This document shows positions 7,899-63,990 of a DNA stretch of 64,000 bases, piece by piece; positions within the stretch are counted from its first letter, which is position 1; each line of letters begins with the position of its first letter. The DNA is taken from assembly GCF_003019035.1 (NCBI RefSeq), contig NZ_CP027447.1. One strand, written 5' to 3'. The notes under the pieces are model-generated. The model worked only from the letters and a program-made list of their open reading frames with translations, was not told where the DNA came from and did not search any database. Source of the stretch: Escherichia coli (GTDB lineage: Bacteria > Pseudomonadota > Gammaproteobacteria > Enterobacterales > Enterobacteriaceae). A program made the translations under genes and the position numbers.

Positions 7899-7994
7899 AT
7901 GCTGGGTAATATGAATGTTTTTATGGCCGTACTGGGAATAATTTTATTTTCTGGGTTTCTGGCCGCGTATTTCAGCCACAAATGGGATGACTAA
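7899..7994 (+). CDS. mgtS: Small membrane protein MgtS (YneM), 31 aa
   Basis: Hand-translated ATG at 7899 after ggag SD: MLGNMNVFMAVLGIILFSGFLAAYFSHKWDD, stop TAA 7992-7994. Below the size cut-off of the ORF track. Confidence 0.75.
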   Translation: MLGNMNVFMAVLGIILFSGFLAAYFSHKWDD

Positions 7995-8024
7995 TGAACG
8001 GAGATAATCCCTCACCTAACCGGC

Positions 8025-8060
8025 CCCTTGTTACAGTTGTGTACAAGGGGCCTGATTTTT
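8025..8060 (+). terminator. Rho-independent terminator downstream of mgtS
   Basis: ccccttgt ... acaagggg stem followed by cctgattttt. Confidence 0.55.
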
Positions 8061-8065
8061 ATGAC

Positions 8066-8172
8066 GGCGAAAAAAAACCGCCAGTAAACCGGCGGTGAAT
8101 GCTTGCATGGATAGATTTGTGTTTTGCTTTTACGCTAACAGGCATTTTCCTGCACTGATAACGGATCGTTGA
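8066..8172 (-). ncRNA. mgrR: Candidate PhoP-regulated sRNA MgrR
   Basis: Minus-strand terminator hairpin ccgccggtttactggcgg plus a run of eight T (plus coords about 8066-8096) roughly 100 nt downstream of a PhoP-box-like direct repeat; location between mgtS and dgcZ agrees with where MgrR is reported. Ends are approximate. Confidence 0.5.
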
Positions 8173-8199
8173 CACAGTAGCATCAGTTTTCTCAATGAA

Positions 8200-8220
8200 T
8201 GTTAAACGGAGCTTAAACTC
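8200..8220 (-). promoter_or_regulatory. PhoP box-like direct repeat (AGTTTA-n5-CGTTTA) for mgrR
   Basis: Minus strand reads GAGTTTAAGCTCCGTTTAAC; hexamer repeats spaced 11 bp apart, overlapping the 3' end of dgcZ. Confidence 0.45.
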
Positions 8221-43184: not shown

Positions 43185-43455
43185 GATGTTACCGTAGTAT
43201 GTGAGTATCCATCGAATAGACACCAAGCAAAAAAGCTCCCGAAGGAGCCTTCATTTTCACTTTTTTAAATCCAACGACAGACGGCTGGCATTTAAGTATT
43301 GTGAAATATTATCAAATGTAATCATCATTGATTTACAAAAGATACATTTTGCCCCGAAAGGATTCATGTCAGAAACATCAAAAGATGATGTTCTATACTG
43401 GGAACCATGACAACACGGGCATCTAAAGTGAATATGGTTTGTAATATTGTCTACC

Positions 43456-43668
43456 TCAAAGCGCCACTACATGAACAGCGGCAGGACCTTTAGGTCCGTT
43501 CTCAATACCAAATTCAACTTCCTGATTCTCAGTTAATGTTTTGAAATCGTTGCTCTGAATTGCTGAGAAATGGACAAACACATCTTTGCTGCCATCTTTC
43601 GGCGTGATGAAACCAAAACCTTTTTCAGGGTTAAACCATTTCACTAAACCAGTCATTTTGTTAGACAT
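43456..43668 (-). CDS. cspI: Cold shock protein CspI
   Basis: 70 aa CspA-family protein with RNP motifs KGFGFI and VFVHF; matches recalled CspI. Confidence 0.85.
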
Positions 43669-44030
43669 AATTATTACCTTTTGAAGAAATTAGCCCTTGG
43701 GCAGAATGGTCCGAAAAAAAATATCAGAGAGAAAAACCAACAAGGAAATCTCAAGAGGTACAAATAATAAAATTATAACAATGACTGCTTCAGATAAATT
43801 TGTAACAAACCAGAACACCATTAACGCATGATTAACCACCCATAGCAAGGATTACTTTTGTAAAGAAAAACACAGCAATGAAAGAATAGCTTTATTTATT
43901 AATAAAACGTGTCATTCTGATTAAGACCTTTTATCTTACCCTTAAGATTTCAGGAATTTTGGCTCATGGAAGAGTCCTTTTTATTTAAATTTTACATTCC
44001 GCGATGTAAATGTTCCGATTTAATATTACC

Positions 44031-46052: not shown

Positions 46053-46339
46053 GGGTTTGAGATTGTGGTGCTTTTTGTGGGAGTCATCCACTTACGCACT
46101 TTGTTTTGCCATGCCAGCAGTTAGCTTCTGCTGTAAAACTATTCATGCAGCAAACCTGCACTTCACCACAATGGTTAGCATACTTTTCCTGATTAAGATT
46201 TTGCCAAATATGCTAGCCATTGTTTCATGTATTGGACCTCCTTACTTTTTATTAAAGAGATCCAATATTCACTACTCTGTCCGTATCTCTACTCAGGCAT
46301 CAGCCTTCTTCGTTATCGTATACAGACGAGCGATGAATT

Positions 46340-46555
46340 TTAATCAGTAATGATGACATTTGCTGCTGCAGGACCTTTAGCACCACTCTCTATAGAGAAG
46401 GTAACCTTTTGACCTTCAAATAAGGTTCGATAATTATCATTCTGAATCGCAGAAAAATGCACAAACACATCTTTACTACCATCAACAGGAGAAATAAAGC
46501 CGAAACCTTTATCAGCGTTAAACCATTTTACTAAACCAGTCATTTTATTTGACAT
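46340..46555 (-). CDS. cspB: Cold shock protein CspB
   Basis: 71 aa CspA-family protein; matches recalled CspB. Confidence 0.85.
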
Positions 46556-46855
46556 TCTACATTCCTTAACTTGAGCCTTTCGGCATAAATGGTTTGCATA
46601 ACAGAAACGACTTCGTACTTAATTGGAGAGACTCAAAGAAGGAATAAGTGAATAACACCTGAAATGAGAACTGCTTTAGTAAACTACTTCGTATATCGTC
46701 TGTTCTTCAAACCGACGCAATCATTAACGCATAGTTGAACATATGAAGCAATGTTTATTTTAGACATCCAGCCATCTTCAACCCCATCAAAAAACTATAG
46801 CTTTCTTCAGGAACGTGTGTATAGTGCGCCAAGTTATCAGTATTAAGGAATTTTT

Positions 46856-51825: not shown

Positions 51826-53674
51826 AGTTAACATTACAAGATATAAGTAATGGACGCACTCCCAATTAGTCTATTTAAATCGCCACGAGTTTAACTGACA
51901 ACCCATGATCAATTATGAATTGCAACTATTTCTGTAGTCACTTTTGTGGGGACAGTCCACAAAACTGCCAACTTCCGCTTCTTGCTCTTAGCGGACATTA
52001 GCATAGGCTATTTACCATAACGCCTCATTACGCGCACCGCCCAGACTGACTCAGCGCGTTTCTGGCATATCCCCGGTAAAACAAGTAACAAACCACCCGA
52101 AAATGAACACCAGAAACGCGACTTAAGAATCTACCCTATGAATGGATATGCACTCAACCGAATCGATCTTGGTTTCAATCTTTTTTATCGGGATCAGGCT
52201 TCTTTTTAGGTAACTTCGGGGGCTTAACTTGCTGATGACTTTGCGTTCGGCGCGTAAGCCAGGGATGGTCAGCTTTAGGTTTAACATAGTATTTTGAGCG
52301 TAAATCAATACGGGCATTATCCACTCGTTCATGGACACTCTTTTCATCATCCAGTGGTATAGGCTCCGGGCCATCAACATACTTTTCCCAGCCCAGCGCT
52401 TTCCCGTCATACAGAACGTTAATTTCACCGTCAAAGTTCTCGCATACAGTAACAACCGAATGCCTAAGTCGATATCCCCGGCCCTCACTGCGTACCTGAA
52501 ACGCACTGCTTTTGTACTGGAAAGTGAGATTTTTAGACAGAACGCGCTTCGCCTGTAGGCTGAAGATATAACCCAGTTCCTCTTCAGAATGGTGCACATC
52601 AAGATGAGCATTATCAGTAGTACGAGGCGACGTAGCGAACCGGTTGTTATAGGCTTCAATAAAGGTCGGCAACCATGCATTTGCTGTTTCAATATCACTG
52701 ATATTCTGAAGCCGCATTTCTTTGACCAGCCTGTCCTGTAGTGTCTGATTGGCGCGCTCTACCCGCCCTTTTGCCTGCGGGCTGTTGGCATGGATTGGCT
52801 CGATGCCCAGTGTCTTTATCGCACGAGTGAACTGGGTCAGCTCACCTTCCCGCTCTGGGTTATTTACCCTGAATATACTGTGTCTATCAGAGTAGAGAGC
52901 GAGCGGTACGCCATGATCATTAAGGTAACCCCGGAGGGTTTCCATGTAAGCCCGGGTTGTTTCAGCAGGCACAAAACGCAACGCCATCAACGCACTGGTG
53001 GCATCATCAATGAAAACGATCAGTGTACATCTGGGGCCTCGATTTTCAAACCAGTCATGAGGTGAGCCATCAATCTGGATCAGTTCACCGTAAGATGGTC
53101 GTCGCATGCGGCGTTGATATATACGGGCAATTTTACGACGGCGTTCACGCCATAACCCCTCTTCTATCATCCACTTTCTGAGAGTTTCAACGGATAAAGA
53201 TAAACCGTGTATCTCGCGCAATTTTTCGCACGCAAACGTAGGTCCAAAATCAGCGTAACGGCCTTTGAGGAGTGAAATTACTGTTGCTCTGAATTCAGTA
53301 GAAAAGGAATTATTAGGACGCTTTCCACGTCGGTGGGAAACCAGACCAGAAGGCCCTTCATTTCTATACCGTTGCACCAGACGTTTAACCTGCCGAATAG
53401 AAATGCCAATGCGTGCCGCAGCTTGTTCCTGAATAATCTGAAGTCGGTGGAGTTCCTTATGACTCATCGTAACAGTCTCTTTGATCATGAAAAATCCCCC
53501 AGAGAATTGTCTGGGGACATTTTAGAATGGTTCAAAGGGGACATTACAGCTTGGTGTTAACAATAGCCTGCTTCTCCGTGCCTTTCGGCACGTAAGAGGC
53601 TAACCTACATGTGTCTAGCATGAAATTGGCCTCAGATTAATGTTAAGCGTCTTGCAGGACGCGTAATGTTAACT
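51826..53674. mobile_element. Insertion sequence (family uncertain, IS481/ISNCY-like); boundaries tentative
   Basis: Single 437 aa DDE transposase ORF flanked by a 12-bp perfect inverted repeat agttaacattac (51826-51837) / gtaatgttaact (53663-53674); no clear target-site duplication seen. Confidence 0.35.
52175..53488 (-). CDS. DDE transposase with N-terminal HTH and rve-type integrase core
   Basis: 437 aa; HTH near N-terminus (IGISIRQVKRLVQRY); catalytic-triad candidates in IQIDGS, YSDRHSIF and KGRVERANQTL. Confidence 0.8.
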   Translation of the reverse strand: MIKETVTMSHKELHRLQIIQEQAAARIGISIRQVKRLVQRYRNEGPSGLVSHRRGKRPNNSFSTEFRATVISLLKGRYADFGPTFACEKLREIHGLSLSVETLRKWMIEEGLWRERRRKIARIYQRRMRRPSYGELIQIDGSPHDWFENRGPRCTLIVFIDDATSALMALRFVPAETTRAYMETLRGYLNDHGVPLALYSDRHSIFRVNNPEREGELTQFTRAIKTLGIEPIHANSPQAKGRVERANQTLQDRLVKEMRLQNISDIETANAWLPTFIEAYNNRFATSPRTTDNAHLDVHHSEEELGYIFSLQAKRVLSKNLTFQYKSSAFQVRSEGRGYRLRHSVVTVCENFDGEINVLYDGKALGWEKYVDGPEPIPLDDEKSVHERVDNARIDLRSKYYVKPKADHPWLTRRTQSHQQVKPPKLPKKKPDPDKKD

Positions 53675-53822
53675 GGGGCTTTTCTCTATCTGCCGTTGGT
53701 GTCCATGCCCGAGGCAGATAGCCTCAAGCACCCGCAGTCATTCTACTTAACTAAGATTTCCCCGCAAACCGTTTTTGTCCAGCACAGTAAATATCCAACT
53801 AAACCAATGGAGTTCGCTGTAT

Positions 53823-54041
53823 TTACCGCCAGTATTCAATGCACATGACCGCCATGAACACCCCTAAAAAAAGGGCATTTATATATCCAAATATTAATAT
53901 CAAAACATCAACTTTTTCCATATACCTTGCTGTGAAGATGATGGGCATACATGATGCGAACAACCAGAACGCAACAAACAAAAACTGCAATGCGTTTTTC
54001 ATTATTCCTCCTACAATCAATGTGCAATTACATTTAAACAC
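53823..54041 (-). CDS. Hypothetical small membrane protein (two predicted TM helices)
   Basis: 72 aa ORF (likely start MKNALQFLFVAFWLFASCMPIIF...); AT-rich codon usage unlike the flanking phage genes. Confidence 0.4.
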   Translation of the reverse strand: MFKCNCTLIVGGIMKNALQFLFVAFWLFASCMPIIFTARYMEKVDVLILIFGYINALFLGVFMAVMCIEYWR

Positions 54042-54433
54042 ACCTCAATTTGGCCGGACATATAAATATCTAAACCAGAAAAAATCACTTACATAGCGTT
54101 ACAAACTCTTTAGTCTAAAGGTTCATCGTAAAACATTCCCCATACTTATCAGTCCGTTCCGCGCCAGGTAGCTCATTGCCTTATCTGGCAACCTGTAATC
54201 AGGTTTCCGCTTTTTCAGTTGGCTGGTCGTTTAACCGACATAGTTAATCCATTAATCTAGTTGCCGGATGTTGGTGGATTTTCGCGTTTTAGTTGTTCAT
54301 AAAAGTGCACAGCTTTAACCAGTTCTTCTGATGTAACTGGGACTGGTGAGGCAGTGAATAAGGCCTGAATTTGATAGTTCGGCCTGTCGTTACAATCCTC
54401 TTTTTTCGGTACATATTTCCAGTCACCAGACCA

Positions 54434-54892
54434 CTACTTCCCCTGAAAGTCCGTAACGCCTTTTTTCACGTAGCGATATCGCCATGCCACTGGTTTTGCT
54501 TGCCCCGCCGTTTCATGCCCTTCCTGATAATTAATCTCGCTCATTCATCGCCCCACTCATCACAATATGCTTCGACCGGAGTTTTTCCCGCTTCATAGTC
54601 ATCACGCTAGGATTCGACATCAGCAGCACTTCCACCGCGTAACTCACCATAGTCCATTAATAGTTCATCCCGCTCTTCAAAACTGATGTTATATTTAGCT
54701 GAACAAAAATCAGCCACTTTGTTCTTCCTCATCGTCTTTTATTTCGTGGTATGAGTAATTGCAGTAGTTAAAGAAAATTTCTTATGCTCCGTCATGAATT
54801 TCCTCAGGTGTTGCGTCATCGTCCACTTCGAATACATCCTCAAAATCTCCACCAGCTATTCCCGTTTCAATAATAATTTTGAACTTTCGCAT
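54434..54892 (-). other. Cluster of tiny overlapping ORFs (23-41 aa) in shifting frames; probably decayed gene(s)
   Basis: Hand translation gives 36, 41, 23 and 36 aa ORFs at 54782-54892, 54607-54732, 54531-54602 and 54434-54544; an alternative frame across the second gap reads protein-like DDYEAGKTPVEAYCDEWGDE; SD sequences are weak. Confidence 0.3.
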
Positions 54893-55154
54893 TTCACTAC
54901 CGCCCTTTCGGGCGGCCTCCTGATGTTCTGAGGGTGCAGAAATCCATCCGGTTAAGGATTAAATTTTATTTACAGAACTGAATTTAATTATTCAGATATA
55001 CGTATCTGTAGCCTTACGAATCTACTCACTGGATGCCTCTTTCATAAAAATAATCCAGTGGGTTTTATCGTTTTTTCCCTGTTCGTTGACAGATAACAGG
55101 TTTTCTGTCTGTCAGTGCCAGAATCTGGCTTACCGGTATTTGCGTTTCATTCCA

Positions 55155-55511
55155 TTAAAAAATCAGAACGCCGTGCGGCCTCAACACCCGAAAGGCTTCT
55201 TTAAATCTCTGTCGCGAATCATCACGCCAGGCATCTTTATTCAGCCGTCCATATTTCTTTCCCATCCAGGCGTTATCACCAACACTCTCAAGATGCGGAG
55301 GGTCTAATACAACCATCGAAAAAGATGCGTCTGCAAATGATAATGCACGAAAATCTGCGATAATGTCAGGGCTGATAATCAAGCGTCTCCCATTGCGTAA
55401 TGTGTATCCTTCTTTTCTGATATCGCTGAATATCGCCCGTTCGTCAGACTTATCGAACCAGAACATGCGGCTGCCACAGCACATATCAAGAATGGTTGCC
55501 GGTGCACTCAC
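55155..55511 (-). CDS. SAM-dependent methyltransferase-like protein (motif I and DPPH motif IV), possibly truncated
   Basis: 118 aa; ILDMCCGSR resembles SAM-binding motif I and VVLDPPH resembles the D/N-PP-Y/F/H motif IV of amino-methyltransferases; too short for a complete DNA MTase. Confidence 0.45.
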   Translation of the reverse strand: MSAPATILDMCCGSRMFWFDKSDERAIFSDIRKEGYTLRNGRRLIISPDIIADFRALSFADASFSMVVLDPPHLESVGDNAWMGKKYGRLNKDAWRDDSRQRFKEAFRVLRPHGVLIF

Positions 55512-55930
55512 TGCGCCACGTCCTGAAAATTACCCTGATAGAAAGCCAGTATGCGCTGCATAACTTCGCTCTTCCGGCACTCGCGACAGATTATGTTTAG
55601 GCGACTGTCGTAGCGACGTATTTCTCCGTCAGGTGATGACCAGATAAGGTCCGGATCAACCACAGCAGGTTTCTTCACCTTTGCCCTCGAGAGTTTTTTG
55701 CGGGCGTTTTGCCAGTCCTTACGCGCCTGTTCAGAGGGGAATAACCCGTAGCCGGAGTTGTATACATCGCCACTGGCTACCAGCTCTCTGGCAAGAACGC
55801 TCATCAGATATCTAGTCGCACCTGTTTTAGCTTCCAGTTGCCGTAACGTCTCACGGCCGCTCTGGCGCACGAGTTCCACCACCTGCCATTTAATTTTTTC
55901 CCGCTCTTCTTGTGTAAAAACTTTTGCCAC
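55508..55930 (-). CDS. Hypothetical protein (early-region, possible DNA-binding)
   Basis: 140 aa; basic; CRECR near C-terminus; stop overlaps the start of the methyltransferase-like ORF. Confidence 0.5.
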   Translation of the reverse strand: MAKVFTQEEREKIKWQVVELVRQSGRETLRQLEAKTGATRYLMSVLARELVASGDVYNSGYGLFPSEQARKDWQNARKKLSRAKVKKPAVVDPDLIWSSPDGEIRRYDSRLNIICRECRKSEVMQRILAFYQGNFQDVAQ

Positions 55931-55970
55931 AAGTCCCCCTTAAAATTACCTCATGACCTGAAATCAACAC

Positions 55971-56990
55971 TTATCCTCTGAAACCAGGCGGAATTTCTGT
56001 ATCCGGTTCAGAAATATGATTAACACAACGCTGTACAGGTGAACGTCCCAGGCGGATGACCAGTTCGTCCCATTTTTCGCGGAGCTTTGACGGGCTCATG
56101 ATGTTTTTTACCCAGAATGGATCTCGCTGAACCCGACCAAACATTTCGCAAATTTGTCTGTGGCTTCTGCCATCCAGCATCCGCATTGTGCGCACGTCAT
56201 TGGCCCAGGCAGTCCAGTTAGGCTCTTTTGGTCGCATGATCTCGCCATCATCACTGGCTGCCTGTTCGTAGAGACCCACGATCCGCCCCCAGATCCACTG
56301 CGCACACGCCAAATCCTCCCTGCTACCCCACTGGCGTTTTTTCGCACTAAACACAACCGCGTCGGAGTTCCGGGTTAAAAAATCCTGTTCAGTCGTCTGC
56401 GGGTCCGGTTGCGAAGCTTCCGGACGAAAAGTGTTTTTATTCTCTGTAGTAATCTCTGTTGTATTCTCTGTAAGATCATCAGGCCATTTTGACCCGATGA
56501 CATTGGGTCGTTTTGAACCAATGGAGCGTTTCATTTTGACCTCTTCCATCGTGTCATTTTGACCTGATGGAGCGGCGCATTTTGAACCGATGGATTCGCT
56601 CAATTTGCCACCATCTAAAAGCTCGCTCCCATAGTTGATCGTGTAGAAATTGGTCATATCGCGCTTTGATTTATTGAGCTTTTCACAACGCAAAAGCCCC
56701 AGCGTTTTCAGACTTGCAAACGCGCGCTTTAACGTTGACTCTGACCAGAATGGGAACTGTTCCAGCCATTGTTCCGTTGTGTTATAAATCCAGCGAACAC
56801 CATCACATTCCATGCCGGAGTTGGTATCTCTCAACCAGTAGTGCAGTTGTTGCAAAACAATGGCTTCGTTTAAGCCAATTTTCATTGCCAGCTGCGTGTT
56901 TATAACCAGTGGGCGTTCAGCAAAAAGAAGGCTCATAATTCCATCCAGCTTTTTGTTGGTATTGCTGTCGATACGCAAGTTTGAAAGCAA
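55971..56990 (-). CDS. Putative replication initiation protein (replisome-organiser-like)
   Basis: 339 aa ORF in the position of lambda O, downstream of the cro-like dicC; N-terminal winged-helix-like segment; start may be the internal MSLLFAERPLV. Confidence 0.45.
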   Translation of the reverse strand: MLSNLRIDSNTNKKLDGIMSLLFAERPLVINTQLAMKIGLNEAIVLQQLHYWLRDTNSGMECDGVRWIYNTTEQWLEQFPFWSESTLKRAFASLKTLGLLRCEKLNKSKRDMTNFYTINYGSELLDGGKLSESIGSKCAAPSGQNDTMEEVKMKRSIGSKRPNVIGSKWPDDLTENTTEITTENKNTFRPEASQPDPQTTEQDFLTRNSDAVVFSAKKRQWGSREDLACAQWIWGRIVGLYEQAASDDGEIMRPKEPNWTAWANDVRTMRMLDGRSHRQICEMFGRVQRDPFWVKNIMSPSKLREKWDELVIRLGRSPVQRCVNHISEPDTEIPPGFRG

Positions 56991-57438
56991 TTGCTTTTTC
57001 TATAAGTTCGTCAGTTTCACGATCCACTACGGCAGGATCAGCAAAAAGCAGTCCGGACTCCACCACATCGCCATATTCTTTGTTTAACCCGGCGATCATG
57101 CACGTGATGCTTTTTCCGTCAGTAATTTCACGATACAACCTGAAATCATTAATCCGGATAGCCTCCATAATTGCAGGCACTAGCGCCGTGAACTTTTCAC
57201 GCTTATCCCTGGTGTCGATAGCCTTCCAGCGTTCAAATATCTTCACTCGATTAACGCCAAGCGCTCGCTGATCAATCGCGCCACCTTCATATGTGACACG
57301 CTGAACATCGATGTTCGGGCGCTCTTTCAAAGCCCAGAATGCTTCAGTGATTAATATCGTCGCCTGCTCCTGTGTCATTCCTGGTCGACATATCCAGGCA
57401 TCCAGAGCCTCACGAGCCTGTTCAGGAGTGATTTTCAT
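56917..57438 (-). CDS. Hypothetical protein directly downstream of dicC
   Basis: 173 aa ORF overlapping the dicC stop and the next ORF; no motif recognised. Confidence 0.45.
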   Translation of the reverse strand: MKITPEQAREALDAWICRPGMTQEQATILITEAFWALKERPNIDVQRVTYEGGAIDQRALGVNRVKIFERWKAIDTRDKREKFTALVPAIMEAIRINDFRLYREITDGKSITCMIAGLNKEYGDVVESGLLFADPAVVDRETDELIEKAIAFKLAYRQQYQQKAGWNYEPSFC

Positions 57439-57652
57439 TGTTCAACCGCCCCGCCCGCTTCGTCTTACGATATTCATCATAAACTTTGGGATCATACTGA
57501 AGCTCCCCGCCAGATGCCTCCTGTAGACGCATCGCGCGACCTTCGGGAACTAAATCCCCTTTCCAGCTATAAAGCGAAGCCAAACGAATACCTGCTGCTT
57601 GTGCAAGTTTTGTTTTTGAACCGAAATACAAAAGAGCGTCAGTTTTAAGCAT
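57422..57652 (-). CDS. dicC: Cro-like regulator DicC
   Basis: 76 aa; matches recalled DicC. Confidence 0.85.
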   Translation of the reverse strand: MLKTDALLYFGSKTKLAQAAGIRLASLYSWKGDLVPEGRAMRLQEASGGELQYDPKVYDEYRKTKRAGRLNNENHS

Positions 57653-57735
57653 TTAAAACACCTTTATTGTTAGTCATAACTAACAAGATAGATGTTAACA
57701 AAAACATAGTCAATACGATTTAGCATTAGCTAACT
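57653..57735. promoter_or_regulatory. Divergent dicA/dicC promoter-operator region
   Basis: Palindromes tgttagtcataactaaca and ttagcattagctaa in the 83-bp intergenic region. Confidence 0.5.
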
Positions 57736-58143
57736 ATGGAAACAAAAAATTTAACTATCGGCGAACGCATCAGGTATCGTCGGAAAAACCTCAAACACAC
57801 CCAAAGGTCTCTTGCTAAAGCCCTGAAAATCTCCCATGTGTCTGTATCACAATGGGAACGGGGTGATAGTGAACCTACAGGGAAGAACCTTTTTGCCCTC
57901 AGCAAAGTATTGCAATGCTCACCAACATGGATTCTATTTGGCGATGAAGACAAGCAACCAACACCACCTGTTGAGAAGCCAGTTGCCTTATCCCCCAAAG
58001 AACTAGAGCTCCTTGAGCTGTTTAATGCACTGCCAGAATCAGAACAGGATACCCAGCTCGCCGAAATGCGAGCTCGAGTAAAAAACTTCAATAAACTCTT
58101 TGAAGAATTACTAAAAGCCCGTCAGCGGACAAATAAAAGATAA
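57736..58143 (+). CDS. dicA: HTH-XRE repressor DicA
   Basis: 135 aa; matches recalled DicA. Confidence 0.9.
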   Translation: METKNLTIGERIRYRRKNLKHTQRSLAKALKISHVSVSQWERGDSEPTGKNLFALSKVLQCSPTWILFGDEDKQPTPPVEKPVALSPKELELLELFNALPESEQDTQLAEMRARVKNFNKLFEELLKARQRTNKR

Positions 58144-58309
58144 CATCATCAATGAGTTATCTTTTACCACATCAATTATGTTAGCTATAGCATACAAAAT
58201 CACTTGACCGATATGTTAGTCATGGCTAATCTTGTTTGCATCAACACACCGCACGGTGTTCTCAGCAAACAGTTCCGCTACCCCAGCGTTAAGGGGAAAT
58301 GAGGTCAGC

Positions 58310-58465
58310 ATGGATACTATCGATCTTGGCAACAACGAATCTCTGGTGTACGGCGTGTTTCCAAACCAGGACGGCACGTTCACCGCAATGACGTATACCA
58401 AAAGCAAAACGTTTAAAACCGAAAATGGTGCCCGTCGCTGGCTGGAAAGAAACTCAGGTGAGTGA
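58310..58465 (+). CDS. ydfA: Small protein YdfA
   Basis: ORF 58232..58465; from MDTIDLGNNESLVYGVFPNQDG the 51 aa protein matches recalled YdfA. Confidence 0.75.
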   Translation: MDTIDLGNNESLVYGVFPNQDGTFTAMTYTKSKTFKTENGARRWLERNSGE

Positions 58466-58466
58466 T

Positions 58467-58595
58467 ATGGATTTCGACACAATCATGGAAAAGGCTTACG
58501 AAGAATACTTCGAAGGCCTTGCCGAAGGCGAAGAAGCTCTCAGCTTCAGTGAGTTTAAACAGGCGCTTTCCAGTTCGGCAAAATCTAACGGCTGA
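58467..58595 (+). CDS. ydfB: Small protein YdfB
   Basis: Hand-translated 42 aa: MDFDTIMEKAYEEYFEGLAEGEEALSFSEFKQALSSSAKSNG. Confidence 0.7.
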   Translation: MDFDTIMEKAYEEYFEGLAEGEEALSFSEFKQALSSSAKSNG

Positions 58596-58624
58596 TAAGC
58601 GAAACAGCACCGCGAGGAATCAGT

Positions 58625-58843
58625 ATGCAGAAACGAGAACCCGTCATCATCGCGCCAGACTATACCGATGATGAACTTTATGAGTGGATGCGCCAGAAAA
58701 TTAATGCAGCGCAGGATCTGAAATGGGCTAATGAAGCCAGGGCTAAGCAGGCTGAAAATCTGTCCGCTCTGGAGCAGGATATCACCAATCTGGAAAAAGC
58801 AGCGGCATTAAGCATTGCCAGAATGATTACATACCCGCGTTAG
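58625..58843 (+). CDS. ydfC: Small protein YdfC
   Basis: 72 aa; matches recalled YdfC. Confidence 0.8.
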   Translation: MQKREPVIIAPDYTDDELYEWMRQKINAAQDLKWANEARAKQAENLSALEQDITNLEKAAALSIARMITYPR

Positions 58844-59183
58844 TAGCTAATCAACAAAGCTAAGGTTAGTAATTAAGGAGTTCTCCACGGGTGAGGTGGA
58901 GTGCGTGCGCCGGACACGGGTGCGCATCCGGAACTGACAGTTTACTGAAAGGATATTTCCCTGAAAAGTCAGACCATAACGCGAAAGCGCACGGCGAGGT
59001 AGCTGGTTCATAGATAGCCTGTCGTTAAATTTTCGTCGACCGTGCGCTTCCGGTTGTGGCAACCCGCGAAATGGCGCGGCGGTAAGTATGGCGGGGTTAT
59101 TCCTTCCCCGTTGAGGACACCGGGTTGTCAGGTTGACCATACGCTTAAGTGACAACCCCGCTGCAACGCCCTCTGTTATCAAT

Positions 59184-59236
59184 TTTCTGGTGACGTTTGG
59201 CGGTATCAGTTTTACTCCGTGACTGCTCTGCCGCCC
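59184..59236 (+). ncRNA. dicF: DicF small RNA (ftsZ-targeting antisense sRNA)
   Basis: tttctggtgacgtttggcggtatcagttttactccgtgactgctctgccgccc followed by ttttt matches the 53-nt DicF sequence I recall. Confidence 0.85.
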
Positions 59237-59410
59237 TTTTTAAAGTGAATTTTGTGATGTGGTGAATGCGGCTGAGCGCACGCGGAACAGTTAAAACCAA
59301 AAACAGTGTTATGGGTGGATTCTCTGTATCCGGCGTTAATTGTTAACTGGTTAACGTCACCTGGAGGCACCAGGCACTGCATCACAAAATTCATTGTTGA
59401 GGACGCGATA

Positions 59411-59599
59411 ATGAAAACGTTATTACCAAACGTTAATACGTCTGAAGGTTGTTTTGAAATTGGTGTCACTATCAGTAACCCAGTATTTACTGAAGATGCC
59501 ATTAACAAGAGAAAACAAGAACGGGAGCTATTAAATAAAATATGCATTGTTTCAATGCTGGCTCGTTTACGTCTGATGCCAAAAGGATGTGCACAATGA
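59411..59599 (+). CDS. dicB: Cell division inhibitor DicB
   Basis: ORF 59306..59599; from MKTLLPNVNTSEGCFEIGVTISNP the 62 aa protein matches recalled DicB. Confidence 0.9.
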   Translation: MKTLLPNVNTSEGCFEIGVTISNPVFTEDAINKRKQERELLNKICIVSMLARLRLMPKGCAQ

Positions 59600-59787
59600 A
59601 TTCAGCATTTGTGCTTGTTCTGACAGTTTTTCTTGTTTCCGGAGAGCCAGTTGATATTGCAGTCAGTGTTCACAGGACAATGCAGGAGTGTATGACTGCA
59701 GCAACCGAACAGAAAATTCCCGGTAACTGTTACCCGGTCGATAAAGTTATTCACCAGGATAATATCGAAATCCCGGCAGGTCTTTAA
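59596..59787 (+). CDS. ydfD: YdfD (small membrane protein of the dicB operon)
   Basis: ORF 59542..59787; start MNSAFVLVLTVFLVSGEP overlaps the dicB stop (ATGA); 63 aa. Confidence 0.8.
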   Translation: MNSAFVLVLTVFLVSGEPVDIAVSVHRTMQECMTAATEQKIPGNCYPVDKVIHQDNIEIPAGL

Positions 59788-59879
59788 AACAGTTCCGTAA
59801 TAAATATCCGGTTTCATTCTTATATGCCAGCAATGGCAGGGATTTGTTCATCCTTAAATCTGTCATGAGGTTAAAACAA

Positions 59880-62351
59880 ATGAGTAAAGTCTTTATTTGC
59901 GCCGCTATTCCTGACGAACTGGCAACAAGGGAAGAAGGCGCTGTGGCTGTAGCCACAGCCATTGAAGCTGGCGACGAACGCCGTGCTCGAGCAAAATTTC
60001 ACTGGCAATTCCTGGAACATTATCCGGCTGCTCAGGACTGCGCTTATAAATTTATTGTCTGCGAGGATAAACCTGGCATACCCCGCCCTGCCCTCGATTC
60101 ATGGGATGCTGAATATATGCAGGAAAACCGCTGGGATGAGGAGTCTGCTTCTTTTGTCCCGGTTGAGACTGAATCCGATCCGATGAACGTCACTTTTGAC
60201 AAGCTGGCCCCTGAAGTACAGAACGCTGTCATGGTTAAGTTCGACACATGTGAAAACATCACCGTTGATATGGTTATTAGCGCACAGGAATTGTTGCAGG
60301 AAGACATGGCAACATTCGACGGACATATCGTTGAAGCGTTGATGAAAATGCCAGAAGTTAACGCCATGTATCCGGAGCTTAAGTTGCACGCCATTGGGTG
60401 GGTTAAGCATAAATGTATTCCTGGTGCTAAATGGCCCGAAATTCAGGCAGAGATGCGCATCTGGAAAAAACGTCGCGAAGGTGAACGCAAGGAAACCGGA
60501 AAATACACGTCTGTTGTTGATCTCGCCCGCGCCAGAGCCAATCAACAGTACACTGAAAATTCAACAGGAAAAATCAGCCCGGTCATTGCTGCCATTCATC
60601 GCGAATACAAGCAGACATGGAAAACACTGGATGACGAACTGGCCTACGCTCTCTGGCCTAGTGATGTGGATGCCGGAAACATTGACGGCAGCATCCATCG
60701 CTGGGCAAAAAAAGAAGTTATCGACAACGACCGCGAAGACTGGAAGCGTATCTCGGCATCAATGCGCAAACAGCCTGATGCCCTTCGCTACGACCGCCAA
60801 ACTATTTTTGGCCTTGTCCGTGAGCGTCCGATCGACATTCACAAAGATCCCGTAGCACTGAACAAATATATCTGCGAATACCTGACGACAAAGGGCGTGT
60901 TTGAGAATGAAGAAACAGACCTGGGCACTGTTGATGTTCTCCAGTCATCAGAAACACAAACTGATGCAGTGGAAACTGAGGTATCTGATATCCCAAAAAA
61001 TGAAACCGCGCCGGAAGCTGAACCATCTGTAGAGCGTGAGGGGCCGTTCTATTTCCTCTTCGCAGATAAGGACGGAGAAAAATACGGTCGCGCAAACAAA
61101 CTCTCTGGTCTGGATAAGGCACTGGCTGCTGGCGCCACTGAAATCACAAAAGAAGAATATTTTGCCCGAAAAAATGGCACATACACGGGCTTACCGCAAA
61201 ATGTAGATACCGCTGAAGATTCAGAACAACCAGAGCCGATAAAAGTTACCGCTGACGAAGTAAACAAAATTATGCAGGCAGCCAATATCAGCCAGCCTGA
61301 CGCCGATAAGTTGCTTGCTGCATCACGTGGTGAATTTGTTGAAGGGATTAGTGACCCGAATGATCCGAAATGGGTTAAGGGGCTCCAGACCCGCGATTCT
61401 GTGAACCAGAACCAGCATGAATCGGAACGGAACTACCAAAAAGCGGAACAAAACAGTCCAAATGCGTTACAAAACGAGCCAGAAACGAAACAGCCTGAAC
61501 CAGTAGCGCAACAGGAAGTGGAAAAAGTCTGCACCGCCTGCGGTCAGACCGGCGGCGGCAACTGCCCTGATTGTGGCGCGGTGATGGGCGACGCAACATA
61601 CCAAGAAACATTCGATGAAGAGTATCAGGTTGAAGTTCAGGAAGATGATCCGGAGGAAATGGAAGGCGCTGAACATCCACACAAGGAGAACACTGGCGGC
61701 AATCAGCATCACAATAGCGATAATGAAACTGGCGAGACGGCAGATCACCCAATTAAGGTGAACGGTCATCACGAAATCACATCCACCAGCAGGACGTGTG
61801 ACCATCTAATGATCGACCTTGAAACCATGGGAAAAAATCCTGATGCCCCGATCATCTCAATAGGTGCAATATTTTTCGATCCGCAAACCGGAGATATGGG
61901 ACCGGAATTTAGTAAGACTATCGATCTGGAAACTGCTGGCGGAGTCATTGATCGGGACACCATTAAATGGTGGCTTAAGCAATCACGCGAAGCGCAATCT
62001 GCCATTATGACCGATGAAATCCCGTTAGATGATGCACTGTTACAATTGCGAGAATTTATCGACGAAAACTCCGGTGAATTTTTTGTTCAGGTTTGGGGAA
62101 ATGGAGCCAACTTCGACAACACGATTTTGCGCCGTTCATACGAACGGCAGGGGATCCCCTGCCCGTGGCGTTACTACAACGATCGCGATGTACGCACAAT
62201 CGTTGAGCTGGGGAAAGCCATAGACTTCGATGCCAGAACGGCTATTCCATTCGAAGGTGAGCGCCATAATGCACTTGATGACGCCCGTTACCAGGCAAAA
62301 TACGTTTCAGTTATCTGGCAAAAACTGATCCCGAGTCAGGCTGATTCTTAA
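59880..62351 (+). CDS. ydfE: YdfE-like large early protein with central zinc ribbon and C-terminal DEDDh 3'-5' exonuclease domain
   Basis: ORF 59844..62351; N-terminus MSKVFICAAIPDELATREEG as recalled for K-12 YdfE; CTACGQTGGGNCPDCG zinc ribbon; C-terminal MIDLETMG / WGNGANFDNTIL / HNALDDARY fit DnaQ-like Exo I, II and III motifs. Confidence 0.7.
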   Translation: MSKVFICAAIPDELATREEGAVAVATAIEAGDERRARAKFHWQFLEHYPAAQDCAYKFIVCEDKPGIPRPALDSWDAEYMQENRWDEESASFVPVETESDPMNVTFDKLAPEVQNAVMVKFDTCENITVDMVISAQELLQEDMATFDGHIVEALMKMPEVNAMYPELKLHAIGWVKHKCIPGAKWPEIQAEMRIWKKRREGERKETGKYTSVVDLARARANQQYTENSTGKISPVIAAIHREYKQTWKTLDDELAYALWPSDVDAGNIDGSIHRWAKKEVIDNDREDWKRISASMRKQPDALRYDRQTIFGLVRERPIDIHKDPVALNKYICEYLTTKGVFENEETDLGTVDVLQSSETQTDAVETEVSDIPKNETAPEAEPSVEREGPFYFLFADKDGEKYGRANKLSGLDKALAAGATEITKEEYFARKNGTYTGLPQNVDTAEDSEQPEPIKVTADEVNKIMQAANISQPDADKLLAASRGEFVEGISDPNDPKWVKGLQTRDSVNQNQHESERNYQKAEQNSPNALQNEPETKQPEPVAQQEVEKVCTACGQTGGGNCPDCGAVMGDATYQETFDEEYQVEVQEDDPEEMEGAEHPHKENTGGNQHHNSDNETGETADHPIKVNGHHEITSTSRTCDHLMIDLETMGKNPDAPIISIGAIFFDPQTGDMGPEFSKTIDLETAGGVIDRDTIKWWLKQSREAQSAIMTDEIPLDDALLQLREFIDENSGEFFVQVWGNGANFDNTILRRSYERQGIPCPWRYYNDRDVRTIVELGKAIDFDARTAIPFEGERHNALDDARYQAKYVSVIWQKLIPSQADS

Positions 62352-62423
62352 TGTTCAACTGTCGCCGGTTGTGACTGGTATTCTGCAACCGGCGCTCGTC
62401 TGATGTAAGAGATAAAGAAATCG

Positions 62424-62675
62424 ATGAGCGAAGTAATCATGATTGTCTCTCCCGGCAAATGGGTATCCGAAGAGCAGTTAATTGCGCTGAAAGGAATAAA
62501 AAAAGGTACGTTAAAAAAGGCCCGGGAAAAATCGTTTATGGAAGGAAGGGAATATAAGCATGTCGCTCATGACGGTATGCCATGGGATAACAGTCCATGC
62601 TTTTACAACCTGGAAGAAATTGATCGCTGGATTGAGCGCCAGGCATCAGCGAGACCAAGACGTCATCTTACTTGA
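62424..62675 (+). CDS. Putative excisionase / small DNA-binding protein
   Basis: 83 aa basic protein immediately upstream of the integrase gene; no strong motif. Confidence 0.4.
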   Translation: MSEVIMIVSPGKWVSEEQLIALKGIKKGTLKKAREKSFMEGREYKHVAHDGMPWDNSPCFYNLEEIDRWIERQASARPRRHLT

Positions 62676-62694
62676 CTAAAAGCCACACTAACTA

Positions 62695-63990
62695 ATGAGA
62701 GAAGTTGAAATGAAATATCCGACAGGCGTGGAAAACCATGGAGGGAAATTACGTATCTGGTTTGTTTATAAAGACGTAAGAGTCAGGGAAAATCTGGGGG
62801 TTCCTGACACAGCAAAAAACAGGCGCGTTGCAGGTGAACTACGCTCCTCTGTTTGTTACGCAATAAAAACTGGTGTTTTCGACTATGCAAAACAGTTTCC
62901 CTCCTCACGCTATCTGGAAAAATTTGGTGAGGCCCGACAAGATTTAACCATAAAAGAACTGGCTGAAAAATTTCTGGCACTGAAAGAAACTGAAGTCGCC
63001 AAAACATCACTCAACACATACCGTGCCGTCATCAAAAATATCCTGAGCATAATCGGTGAAAAAAATCTTGCCTCATCGATTAATAAAGAAAAATTACTGG
63101 AGGTTCGTAAAGAGTTACTGACTGGATACCAGATCCCCAAAAGTAACTATATTGTTACACAACCAGGGAGATCGGCTGTAACTGTAAATAATTACATGAC
63201 AAATCTTAACGCCGTGTTCCAGTTTGGTGTTGATAACGGTTACCTGGCAGATAATCCGTTTAAGGGGATCTCGCCATTAAAGGAATCAAGAACCATTCCG
63301 GATCCTCTTTCGCGGGAAGAATTTATCCGTCTTATCGATGCGTGCAGAAATCAGCAAGCAAAAAATTTATGGTGTGTTTCTGTTTATACTGGAGTTCGCC
63401 CTGGTGAGCTGTGTGCACTTGGATGGGAGGACATAGATCTGAAAAATGGAACAATGATGATCAGGAGAAATTTAGCAAAAGACCGTTTCACGGTACCAAA
63501 AACACAGGCGGGAACCAATCGGGTCATTCATCTTATTAAGCCAGCAATCGACGCTCTCCGGAGTCAGATGACATTAACGAGACTGAGCAAAGAGCATATC
63601 ATTGATGTTCACCTCAGAGAGTATGGCAGAACAGAAAAACAAAAATGCACCTTTGTTTTTCAACCTGAAGTGTCAGCGAGAGTAAAAAATTATGGTGACC
63701 ATTTTACCGTTGACTCAATAAGGCAGATGTGGGACGCAGCGATAAAACGTGCCGGACTCCGCCATCGAAAATCATATCAGTCGAGACATACTTATGCCTG
63801 CTGGTCGCTGACAGCTGGTGCTAACCCGGCATTTATAGCAAACCAGATGGGCCATGCAGATGCGCAAATGGTATTTCAGGTATACGGAAAATGGATGTCT
63901 GAAAACAATAATGCACAGGTAGCTTTGTTAAATACACAGTTAAGCGAGTTTGCCCCAACCATGCCCCATAACGAAGCAATGAAAAATTAA
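62695..63990 (+). CDS. Tyrosine site-specific integrase (lambda Int family)
   Basis: 431 aa; C-terminal catalytic region with the conserved arginine, the HxxR box and the tyrosine nucleophile (RHTYACWSLTAGANPAFIANQMGHADAQMVFQVYGKWM); true start may be the internal MKYPTGVENHGG. Confidence 0.85.
   Translation: MREVEMKYPTGVENHGGKLRIWFVYKDVRVRENLGVPDTAKNRRVAGELRSSVCYAIKTGVFDYAKQFPSSRYLEKFGEARQDLTIKELAEKFLALKETEVAKTSLNTYRAVIKNILSIIGEKNLASSINKEKLLEVRKELLTGYQIPKSNYIVTQPGRSAVTVNNYMTNLNAVFQFGVDNGYLADNPFKGISPLKESRTIPDPLSREEFIRLIDACRNQQAKNLWCVSVYTGVRPGELCALGWEDIDLKNGTMMIRRNLAKDRFTVPKTQAGTNRVIHLIKPAIDALRSQMTLTRLSKEHIIDVHLREYGRTEKQKCTFVFQPEVSARVKNYGDHFTVDSIRQMWDAAIKRAGLRHRKSYQSRHTYACWSLTAGANPAFIANQMGHADAQMVFQVYGKWMSENNNAQVALLNTQLSEFAPTMPHNEAMKN

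Follow-up and report, generated by a model that had tools for sequence, protein, structure and literature searches.

The dicBF operon of the cryptic Qin prophage in Escherichia coli K-12 is a textbook locus, among the best-studied of all cryptic-prophage operons. Its promoter, dicBp, was described as PL-like and repressed by DicA; DicA and DicC resemble the C2 and Cro regulators of phage P22, while Rem is an antirepressor. According to Ragunathan et al. (2023), the small RNA DicF is cut from a polycistronic transcript that starts at dicBp, upstream of ydfA, with the 5' end of a 190-nt species being generated by RNase III and that of the 53-nt form by RNase E. The 190-nt species is stable, accumulates in stationary phase, and rises upon inactivation of RNase E. 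That study found neither an internal promoter nor a long read-through species, whereas a preprint reiterates claims from databases that dicF and dicB have additional promoters upstream. The 3' end of the 53-nt form was assigned to Rho-independent termination, and a 72-nt form to RNase III processing of the full-length mRNA (Balasubramanian et al. 2016). The same work showed that DicF acts through its 3' region on ftsZ and pykA, and through its 5' end on xylR. As for the proteins, DicB acts via MinC on FtsZ and blocks ManYZ-dependent phage entry, and YdfD binds IspG and lyses dividing cells, an effect offset by DicB.

A related arrangement is found in the PL operon of lambda and P22, where a repressor gene is followed by a co-directional, repressor-controlled promoter, small genes and a division inhibitor, with recombination or exonuclease genes, xis and int located downstream. 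All of these features recur at the locus described here. The division inhibitor, however, is kil in lambda and P22, whereas DicF RNA and DicB take this role here; in addition, no N gene or nut site was recognised at our locus, and DicA has no RecA-cleavage site according to the literature. Neither Pfam nor PHROGs recognised an N-type antiterminator among the neighbouring open reading frames (ORFs), which is a weak negative. Another phage without a recognised N is HK022, in which put, a sense-strand RNA of two stem-loops and ~70 nt, lies soon after the promoter of both early operons, with terminators downstream.

We show herein that a 64-kb stretch of E. coli DNA (the window) carries a complete dicBF cassette. 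The cassette itself is already known; the new element is a conserved folded RNA domain, matched by no Rfam family, that makes up the last third of its leader. This domain (the module) is presented as a lead, with no claim of novelty. Ragunathan et al. (2023) mention neither the terminator nor read-through, secondary structure or antitermination, and an earlier description may exist in the older literature.

An intact dicBF operon in a Qin-type prophage

The DicF sRNA (53 nt) lies at 59184-59236 on the plus strand, with its terminator hairpin at 59199-59235 and a U-tail, TTTTT, at 59237-59241. The sequence-only reading had described DicF, dicB and ydfD as intact and had named mismatches in the DicF seed region as the finding that would speak against it. 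Such mismatches are absent: base-by-base comparison with K-12 MG1655 (NC_000913) gave 53/53 identical nucleotides for DicF (b1574). Accordingly, the regions that pair with xylR (5' end) and with ftsZ and pykA (3' region) are the same as in the characterised K-12 RNA, for which Hfq-dependent repression of ftsZ has been published. The Rfam DicF family (RF00039) matched 59185-59236 over the full model (positions 1-52 of 52) with 76.7 bits, above the gathering score of 48 (E = 3.6e-15). The predicted fold consists of a single-stranded 5' region and the terminator hairpin, followed by UUUUU (-15.9 kcal/mol).

Both protein genes are likewise 100% identical to their MG1655 copies, and the alignment with the K-12 operon is exact for dicF, dicB and ydfD alike. 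The start of dicB (59411-59599, plus strand; 62 aa) is internal to, and in phase with, a longer ORF at 59306-59599; the title of Cam et al. (1988), as given in a paper that cites it, mentions an internal start. DicB belongs to Pfam PF05358 (E = 1.9e-40; 136.8 bits, gathering score 27; residues 1-62 of 62), and the 63-aa lysis protein YdfD (59596-59787, plus strand) to DUF1482 (PF07358; E = 3.9e-26; 91.1 bits, gathering score 25; full length). Because the ATG of ydfD overlaps the TGA of dicB in a shared ATGA at 59596-59599, the earlier description of the two genes as coupled is accurate.

The identity extends well beyond the cassette. Exact base-by-base matches to K-12 were obtained for dicC, ydfA, ydfB, ydfC, dicF, the dicF-dicB spacer, dicB and ydfD, as well as for the first 765 nt of ydfE. 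Only two single-nucleotide differences (SNPs) separate the strains across 57159-60646: one at 57903, synonymous and within dicA, so that the DicA protein is identical to that of K-12, and the other in the leader, at 58992. Hundreds of complete E. coli genomes contain this 2.6-kb segment at 100% identity, and RefSeq labels the copies dicA, dicC, ydfC, dicB and "lysis protein YdfD". Upstream of dicF are the small plus-strand genes ydfA (58310-58465), ydfB (58467-58595) and ydfC (58625-58843); ydfA is a DUF1391 member in Pfam, and all three fall into PHROG families of unknown function. The next gene after ydfD in the operon is a full-length ydfE (59880-62351, plus strand; 823 aa), which matches a Pfam Rv2179c-like domain at residues 642-813 (E = 2.4e-67) and is annotated "exonuclease" in E. 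coli W; in K-12, ydfE is a pseudogene cut by IS2E.

The immunity region has a lambdoid layout, with divergent genes for a CI-like repressor (HTH_3 / Phage_CI_repr) and a Cro-like regulator (P22_Cro), and a second operator-like promoter past the repressor gene. On the minus strand, dicC (57422-57652; 76 aa) is an exact match to K-12 b1569 and scores against Pfam P22_Cro (E = 1.7e-11); on the plus strand, dicA (57736-58143; 135 aa) encodes a CI/C2-like repressor with an HTH_3 domain (E = 1.3e-16). An operator-like palindrome, TGTTAGTCATAACTAACA, lies between them at 57668-57685 (repeat D1, inverted repeats I1/I2). It is repeated as TGTTAGTCATGGCTAA at 58214-58229 (repeats D1/D4), where it overlaps dicBp, and the shared motif TGTTAG-N6-CTAA occurs at 57668, 58179 and 58214, and hence at both promoters. 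These sites are putative, and we infer from the literature that DicA and DicC would bind them. We likewise read dicBp (58204-58232, plus strand) from the letters as -35 TTGACC (58204-58209) and -10 TAATCT (58227-58232), in a region identical to K-12; a consensus promoter scan did not pick up these hexamers. The overall order is dicC (leftward), dicA (rightward), dicBp, ydfABC, dicF, dicB, ydfD, exo, xis and int. Together with the published status of dicBp, this order and the operator-like motifs at both promoters bear out the proposal of an early-left operon under DicA repression.

The host prophage had also been described as nearly complete, a fair description. Host genes occupy ~1-17 kb of the window, and the prophage runs from ~17 kb to the integrase at the window end, collinear and 97-99% identical with the Qin-like prophage of E. 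coli W. Its genes encode tail fibre, J, tape measure, capsid, portal and terminase; also present are a lysis cassette, the Q-type antiterminator ydfT, rem, hokD/relBE and a replication region, within which the E. coli W annotation marks an ISNCY fragment and two pseudogenes. After dicC/dicA and the dicB operon come the full-length exonuclease gene, xis and int. In the K-12 Qin prophage, the dicBF operon (b1569-b1577) has the same order, the same ATGA coupling and the same 340-nt gap ahead of dicF, with spacers identical save for the one leader SNP. Unlike K-12, however, the present prophage, as that of E. coli W, has intact int and xis, full-length ydfE, a replication region, and complete sets of genes for head, tail and lysis; window positions 52360-57158 and 60647-62830 are absent from K-12, the latter being replaced by an IS2 remnant. 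The surrounding prophage is therefore far more complete than Qin of K-12. The value of this strain is that the cassette sits within a near-complete Qin-type prophage, which would make the natural role of the operon during induction accessible, in place of a decayed remnant.

Taken together, the region is almost certainly the dicBF operon of a Qin-type lambdoid prophage, working as it does in K-12. This assignment builds on the identity, integrity, gene order and RNA structures found in the window, and on repression, processing and product activities published for the identical sequence. Because the sequence is identical, the activities published for K-12 transfer directly, and the interpretation given in the sequence-only reading is established biology of this exact sequence. 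We found nothing in the sequence that speaks against this explanation.

On this basis, DicA would hold the PL-like dicBp off in a lysogen, as a CI/C2-like repressor. Upon derepression, a single transcript would cover ydfA-ydfB-ydfC, the 340-nt leader, dicF, dicB, ydfD, the exonuclease gene, xis and int. RNase III would cleave a duplex of ~22 bp in the leader to give the 5' end of the 190-nt RNA, and RNase E would then cut an AU-rich linker at 59183/59184 and free the 53-nt DicF. The 3' end of DicF would come from its own intrinsic terminator or, for the 72-nt form, from RNase III acting on read-through transcripts. With Hfq, DicF would pair with the ftsZ, xylR, pykA and manX mRNAs; DicB would redirect MinC against the FtsZ ring and also block ManYZ-dependent entry of phage DNA; and YdfD, being translationally coupled to dicB, would bind IspG and lyse dividing cells unless DicB had halted division.

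The leader had been called long and processed, with a start at 58847; its length and processing stand, and the gap between ydfC and dicF in fact runs from 58844 to 59183 (340 nt), a trivial difference. The RNase III and RNase E cuts are published (Ragunathan et al. 2023; Balasubramanian et al. 2016). A long duplex at 58974-59059 (plus strand), seen both as inverted repeat I2 and in the minimum free energy (MFE) fold of the leader, pairs 58974-58997 with 59037-59059. The leader SNP falls within it, C here and T in K-12 at 58992, and its partner G59042 is paired either way (C:G vs U.G). From the predicted fold, this duplex is a likely RNase III substrate, cut at ~59051/59052. For a 190-nt RNA with its 3' end at the terminator, the 5' end must lie at 59047-59052; the interval 59052-59241 measures exactly 190 nt, and its first position is the foot of the ~22-bp duplex. 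The published cut "813/814" coincides with ~59051/59052 if counted from a start near 58239, but its numbering may have an origin other than the transcription start, so that our placement relies mainly on the 190-nt length. Downstream, a single-stranded linker of 16 nt (59168-59183, plus strand) leads to the RNase E cut, which separates AAU from UUU between 59183 and 59184. RNase E prefers to cut between RN and WUU, and the linker sequence fits this preference. Genome-wide RNase III mapping papers give no coordinates for the dicF locus, and the cut coordinates proposed here combine the sequence with published RNA lengths.

A conserved folded module in the dicF leader

The 3' third of the leader contains a structured RNA module of 115 nt (59053-59167, plus strand), defined by covariation and by a covariance model, R1, which scores 157 bits (E = 7e-51). 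The module comprises helices P1 (59053-59060 with 59160-59167), P2 (59064-59068 with 59075-59079), P2b (59080-59083 with 59119-59122), P3 (59092-59096 with 59106-59110) and P4 (59123-59130 with 59150-59157), and a pseudoknot between 59086-59091 and the P4 loop (59137-59142). The 137 nt ahead of DicF in the 190-nt species correspond to a 115-nt pseudoknotted domain and the 16-nt linker. In the unprocessed transcript, the 5' strand of P1 sits in the RNase III duplex; cleavage by RNase III may be what lets the module close. At permissive E-values, in this region of the window and in five other contexts, no Rfam family covers the module.

A BLAST search with the leader revealed that a sub-segment of ~100-120 nt recurs without dicF in lambdoid phages (Ayreon, cdtI, 2H10, Stx2c phages, Salmonella phage F1055 and pPE4), in P1 and P7, and on tRNA-carrying plasmids. 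A pattern scan of viral contigs, in which two invariant blocks were fixed as the search pattern, found at least 120 module loci; among the matches listed, these gave 72 distinct sequences, 30 of them <97% identical. Species-representative genomes with the module belong to Escherichia, Citrobacter, Trabulsiella, Serratia and Izhakiella. In the cases examined, the module invariably had the sense orientation and headed a repressor-controlled operon: it followed cI or DicA in lambdoid phages and, in P1 and P7, came directly past the C1-controlled promoter Pban, ~24-45 nt after it. Each of 52 loci contained one copy.

In the alignments of these sequences, ~40 positions are invariant, and the helices that they surround vary in a compensatory manner. 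In an unfitted MAFFT alignment, 93% of cells pair, compared with 31-58% when the partners are slid, and the number of pairs with changes on both sides is 9, compared with 3.9 +/- 1.4 after shuffling (0/500). In the model-fitted alignment of 46 distinct sequences, which leans towards the structure, 95.5% pair, and both partners change in 18 of 36 pairs; shuffles gave 5.5 +/- 1.5 double-changed pairs, and none of 500 reached 18. By this covariation, P1 and P4 are well supported. P2b and the pseudoknot each have one column pair changed on both sides, in sequences of the P7 and P1 types, and the remaining sequences show no exceptions. For P2, covariation is absent, and one plasmid is without this helix. 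Each of the 30 distinct P3 segments forms a hairpin when folded alone, with CU-rich loops. An energy-only fold of the 190-nt RNA recovered P4 alone among the covariation-supported helices, and the MFE fold by itself is therefore an unreliable guide here.

The same region is spanned on the minus strand by an ORF of 111 aa (58847-59182), which fills the ydfC-dicF gap and could in principle encode a protein. The frame is open across the whole gap, and in some phage records a "hypothetical protein" is placed on the minus strand across the module. However, it is broken in 16 of the 46 distinct variants, including those of P1, P7 and the Ayreon type; variants differ in module length (127-141 nt) by non-multiples of three; and the substitutions follow compensatory base-pairing and are not codon-like. 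The ORF starts with TTG, family searches lend it no support, and the PGAP annotation places no coding sequence over the module in either E. coli W or K-12. A protein-coding role is thus extremely improbable.

Other identities were tried and rejected. ARAGORN was negative over 58800-59450 for a tRNA/tmRNA-like element, and a short-word likeness to 5S rRNA, noted by eye, found no match to the Rfam 5S model. As to HK022 put, the module likewise resides on the sense strand soon after an early promoter and shares with put the short words GCGCGGCGG and CAGGNUGA. Nonetheless, put has two stem-loops whereas the module has five helices and a pseudoknot, and R1 matched neither putL nor putR at E <= 10 with filters off. 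While put occurs once in each early operon (L and R), an R1 search found the module as a single copy in the 64-kb window, with no second copy in the early-right operon or elsewhere. The likeness between the module and put would thus be a functional analogy at most.

In 89 of 94 distinct downstream sequences, an intrinsic terminator lies no more than a few tens of nucleotides behind the module, and 4 more were recognised by eye. DicF represents one version of such a spacer-plus-terminator unit. The tRNA, tci and ban genes of P1 are separated from Pban by a strong 8-bp terminator that ends in a T6 tail; no promoter is annotated or was detected in the interval from Pban to the tRNA and ban genes, by a scan that is insensitive and misses Pban itself. 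The P1 "dicF-like region" (NC_005856, 68791-68892) corresponds to the P1 copy of the module 3' half and the next terminator. This label shows that the sequence similarity had been noticed previously; it gives no structure, boundary or function, and the P1 copy is without the DicF seed and escapes detection by the Rfam DicF model.

Possible roles of the leader module

One explanation, which we hold only tentatively, is that the module controls in cis the read-through at the next intrinsic terminator, and thereby sets the ratio of short RNA (DicF) to downstream mRNA (dicB, ydfD, exo, xis and int). It could do so in two ways, either as an RNA that makes the polymerase terminator-resistant, as do HK022 put and Bacillus EAR, or as a two-state switch. 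The position of the module on the sense strand at the head of repressor-controlled early operons, in lambdoid phages as well as in P1 and P7, is consistent with such a role, as are the terminators that follow it in nearly all loci, the strong P1 terminator with no intervening promoter annotated or found, and the failure to recognise an N-type antiterminator nearby. Moreover, the conservation of unpaired invariant nucleotides across very different phages points to recognition by a conserved host component. The energy-minimum fold of the 190-nt RNA, in which the invariant 5' strand of the module pairs with the 3' arm of the terminator, may represent an anti-terminator conformer, and hints at a two-state switch.

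Several observations weigh against read-through control. The put sites of HK022 go unscored by R1, and the module occurs once per phage, with none in the early-right operon. The terminator works in vivo, since the 3' end of the 53-nt DicF is a termination product, and no long read-through species was seen by Ragunathan et al. (2023). The alternative pairing of module and terminator is not conserved in P1-type terminators and has no covariation support, and the promoter scan that bears on the P1 interval is too insensitive to find Pban.

A second explanation, also rather doubtful, is that a family of sRNAs of ~190 nt has the module as its 5' structural domain, which would serve stability, processing or factor binding with no effect on transcription. 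For example, it might present the AU-rich linker to RNase E once RNase III has left a 5'-monophosphate end, or it might act as a free RNA of ~137 nt. The behaviour of the 190-nt species, stable in stationary phase and increased upon RNase E inactivation, is in line with this, and so are the cuts themselves, with RNase III acting at the 5' edge of the module and RNase E 16 nt past its 3' edge. In P1, promoter, module and terminator together resemble a self-contained sRNA gene of ~165 nt. The spacer-plus-terminator part varies among variants in a seed-like manner, and the P3 loops are consistently CU-rich, as are some seed or anti-Shine-Dalgarno loops. On the contrary, ~40 invariant nucleotides and a pseudoknot, kept from lambdoid phages to P1, would be needless for a stabiliser or a spacer. 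Neither a target or binding partner nor, in the literature examined, a separate 137-nt species has been reported.

A third explanation, which we consider improbable, is a riboswitch-like aptamer that couples host physiology to early-left expression. In its size (115 nt), its pseudoknot and multi-helix junction, and the invariant nucleotides of its junction and loops, the module is typical of aptamers, and it is directly followed by an intrinsic terminator with which an alternative conformer might form. The increase of DicF species in stationary phase would also suit a sensor, but can be explained by promoter derepression. The module matches no Rfam riboswitch class, no conserved and mutually exclusive pairing between aptamer and terminator emerged, and the Qin copy is preceded in the transcript by 814 nt and three ORFs, which is not the setting of a 5' untranslated region.

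We rank read-through control and the sRNA domain about equally, and ligand sensing as less likely. The broader proposition, that the module belongs to an uncatalogued class of phage cis-regulatory RNAs, spread from lambdoid phages to P1 and tRNA-carrying phage-plasmids, which together with a terminator decides between stopping and continuing, is likewise possible but not probable. If it is true, the module would either join HK022 put as a second such RNA, of unrelated structure, or be a phage riboswitch. Control of read-through would also explain how early-left genes are expressed past a strong terminator in phages without N, and how the cell balances DicF against DicB and YdfD. Such control would add a layer to the dicBF-operon explanation without replacing it.

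The dicF-dicB spacer

The spacer between dicF and dicB (59237-59410, plus strand) is itself structured. A 19-nt core at 59246-59264 pairs with 59375-59393 and encloses three hairpins; this inverted repeat (I1) forms the core of a stem of ~28 bp that reaches the Shine-Dalgarno sequence of dicB, with a fold z-score of -4.71. The 72-nt form of DicF is expected to end at ~59255, within the 19-nt long-range stem at 59246-59264, and the predicted stem is thus the probable RNase III site that yields it. The Rfam family STnc100 (RF02076) aligned over its full model with 59234-59443, with the outer long-range stem and inner hairpins in common, and its score of 34.4 bits is below the gathering score of 47, which leaves the spacer outside the family. 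Sub-threshold STnc100 matches (33-39 bits vs 47) also occur upstream of kil in pPE4 and upstream of tciA in P1.

A conserved RNA domain in the leader ahead of DicF

An RNA domain of 115 nt (59053-59167), conserved, covarying and pseudoknotted, makes up the 5' portion of the 190-nt form of DicF, the longer DicF RNA whose 5' end is made by RNase III; Rfam has no family for this domain. Copies of this module without DicF occur in many phages, among them P1, where it corresponds to the "dicF-like region", and a terminator almost always lies 3' of the module across its carriers. An invariant element of the module, GGCGGUA (within 59073-59096), recurs in the terminator of DicF (59199-59236), where it forms the 5' arm. 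In the predicted energy-minimum fold of the 190-nt RNA, the 3' arm of the terminator pairs with the 5' strand of the module, and the terminator itself is left unformed.

Several contigs carry variants of this arrangement. In two IMG/VR contigs (L033 and L067), the loop of the terminator hairpin, ~75-150 nt 3' of the module's invariant CCAT, is enlarged and includes GGAGG-N7-ATG and a very short open reading frame. A third IMG/VR contig (L024), compared with window positions 58978-59068, has lost the segment between two near-repeats, AACGCGAAA and CCGCGAAA; this deletion takes out the 3' strand of the RNase III duplex and the 5' strand of P1 in the module. The module was also found on four short metagenome-assembled contigs (L146, L148, L150 and L151, from genome_contigs) that bear the labels Bacillota, Collinsella and Lachnospiraceae; mis-binning of phage DNA from enterobacteria is the most likely origin of these copies.

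The spacer between dicF and dicB

The spacer between dicF and dicB (59234-59443) is strongly structured (fold z = -4.7), with a long-range stem of ~28 bp that extends to the Shine-Dalgarno sequence of dicB. It matches the Rfam family STnc100 over the full length, at a score below the threshold. Similar STnc100-like matches were found 5' of kil in pPE4 (L010) and 5' of tciA in P1 (L007, 3842-3961), both of which are annotated as division inhibitors.

In E. coli WP9-S17-ESBL-11 (L012, 2353-3390), 3' of a variant DicF (61 bits), a dicB fragment is separated from an intact dicB by the insertion of a Rha-family gene that has matches to isrK and to C4 antisense RNA.

Operator-like motifs, ydfE and other features

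The operator-like motif TGTTAG-N6-CTAACA occurs three times (57668-57685, 58179-58196 and 58214-58229), in the promoter region of dicC/dicA and across dicBp. Downstream, ydfE (59880-62351) is full-length and encodes 823 amino acids, with a C-terminal Rv2179c-like 3'-5' exoribonuclease domain and a long N-terminal region lacking annotation. The K-12 copy is cut short by IS2E at the equivalent of 60646. The window also has a replication-region block (52360-57158; YdaT-like, DUF977, methyltransferase and others) that is deleted from K-12; within this block, the annotation of E. coli W marks two pseudogenes and a fragment of an ISNCY transposase.

Other Rfam matches at the gathering score, all on the minus strand, were the sok antitoxin of hokD (53562-53733), two cspA-type thermoregulator leaders in the cspI/cspB region (43429-43814 and 46324-46716), and STnc560 in flanking host DNA (7988-8201).
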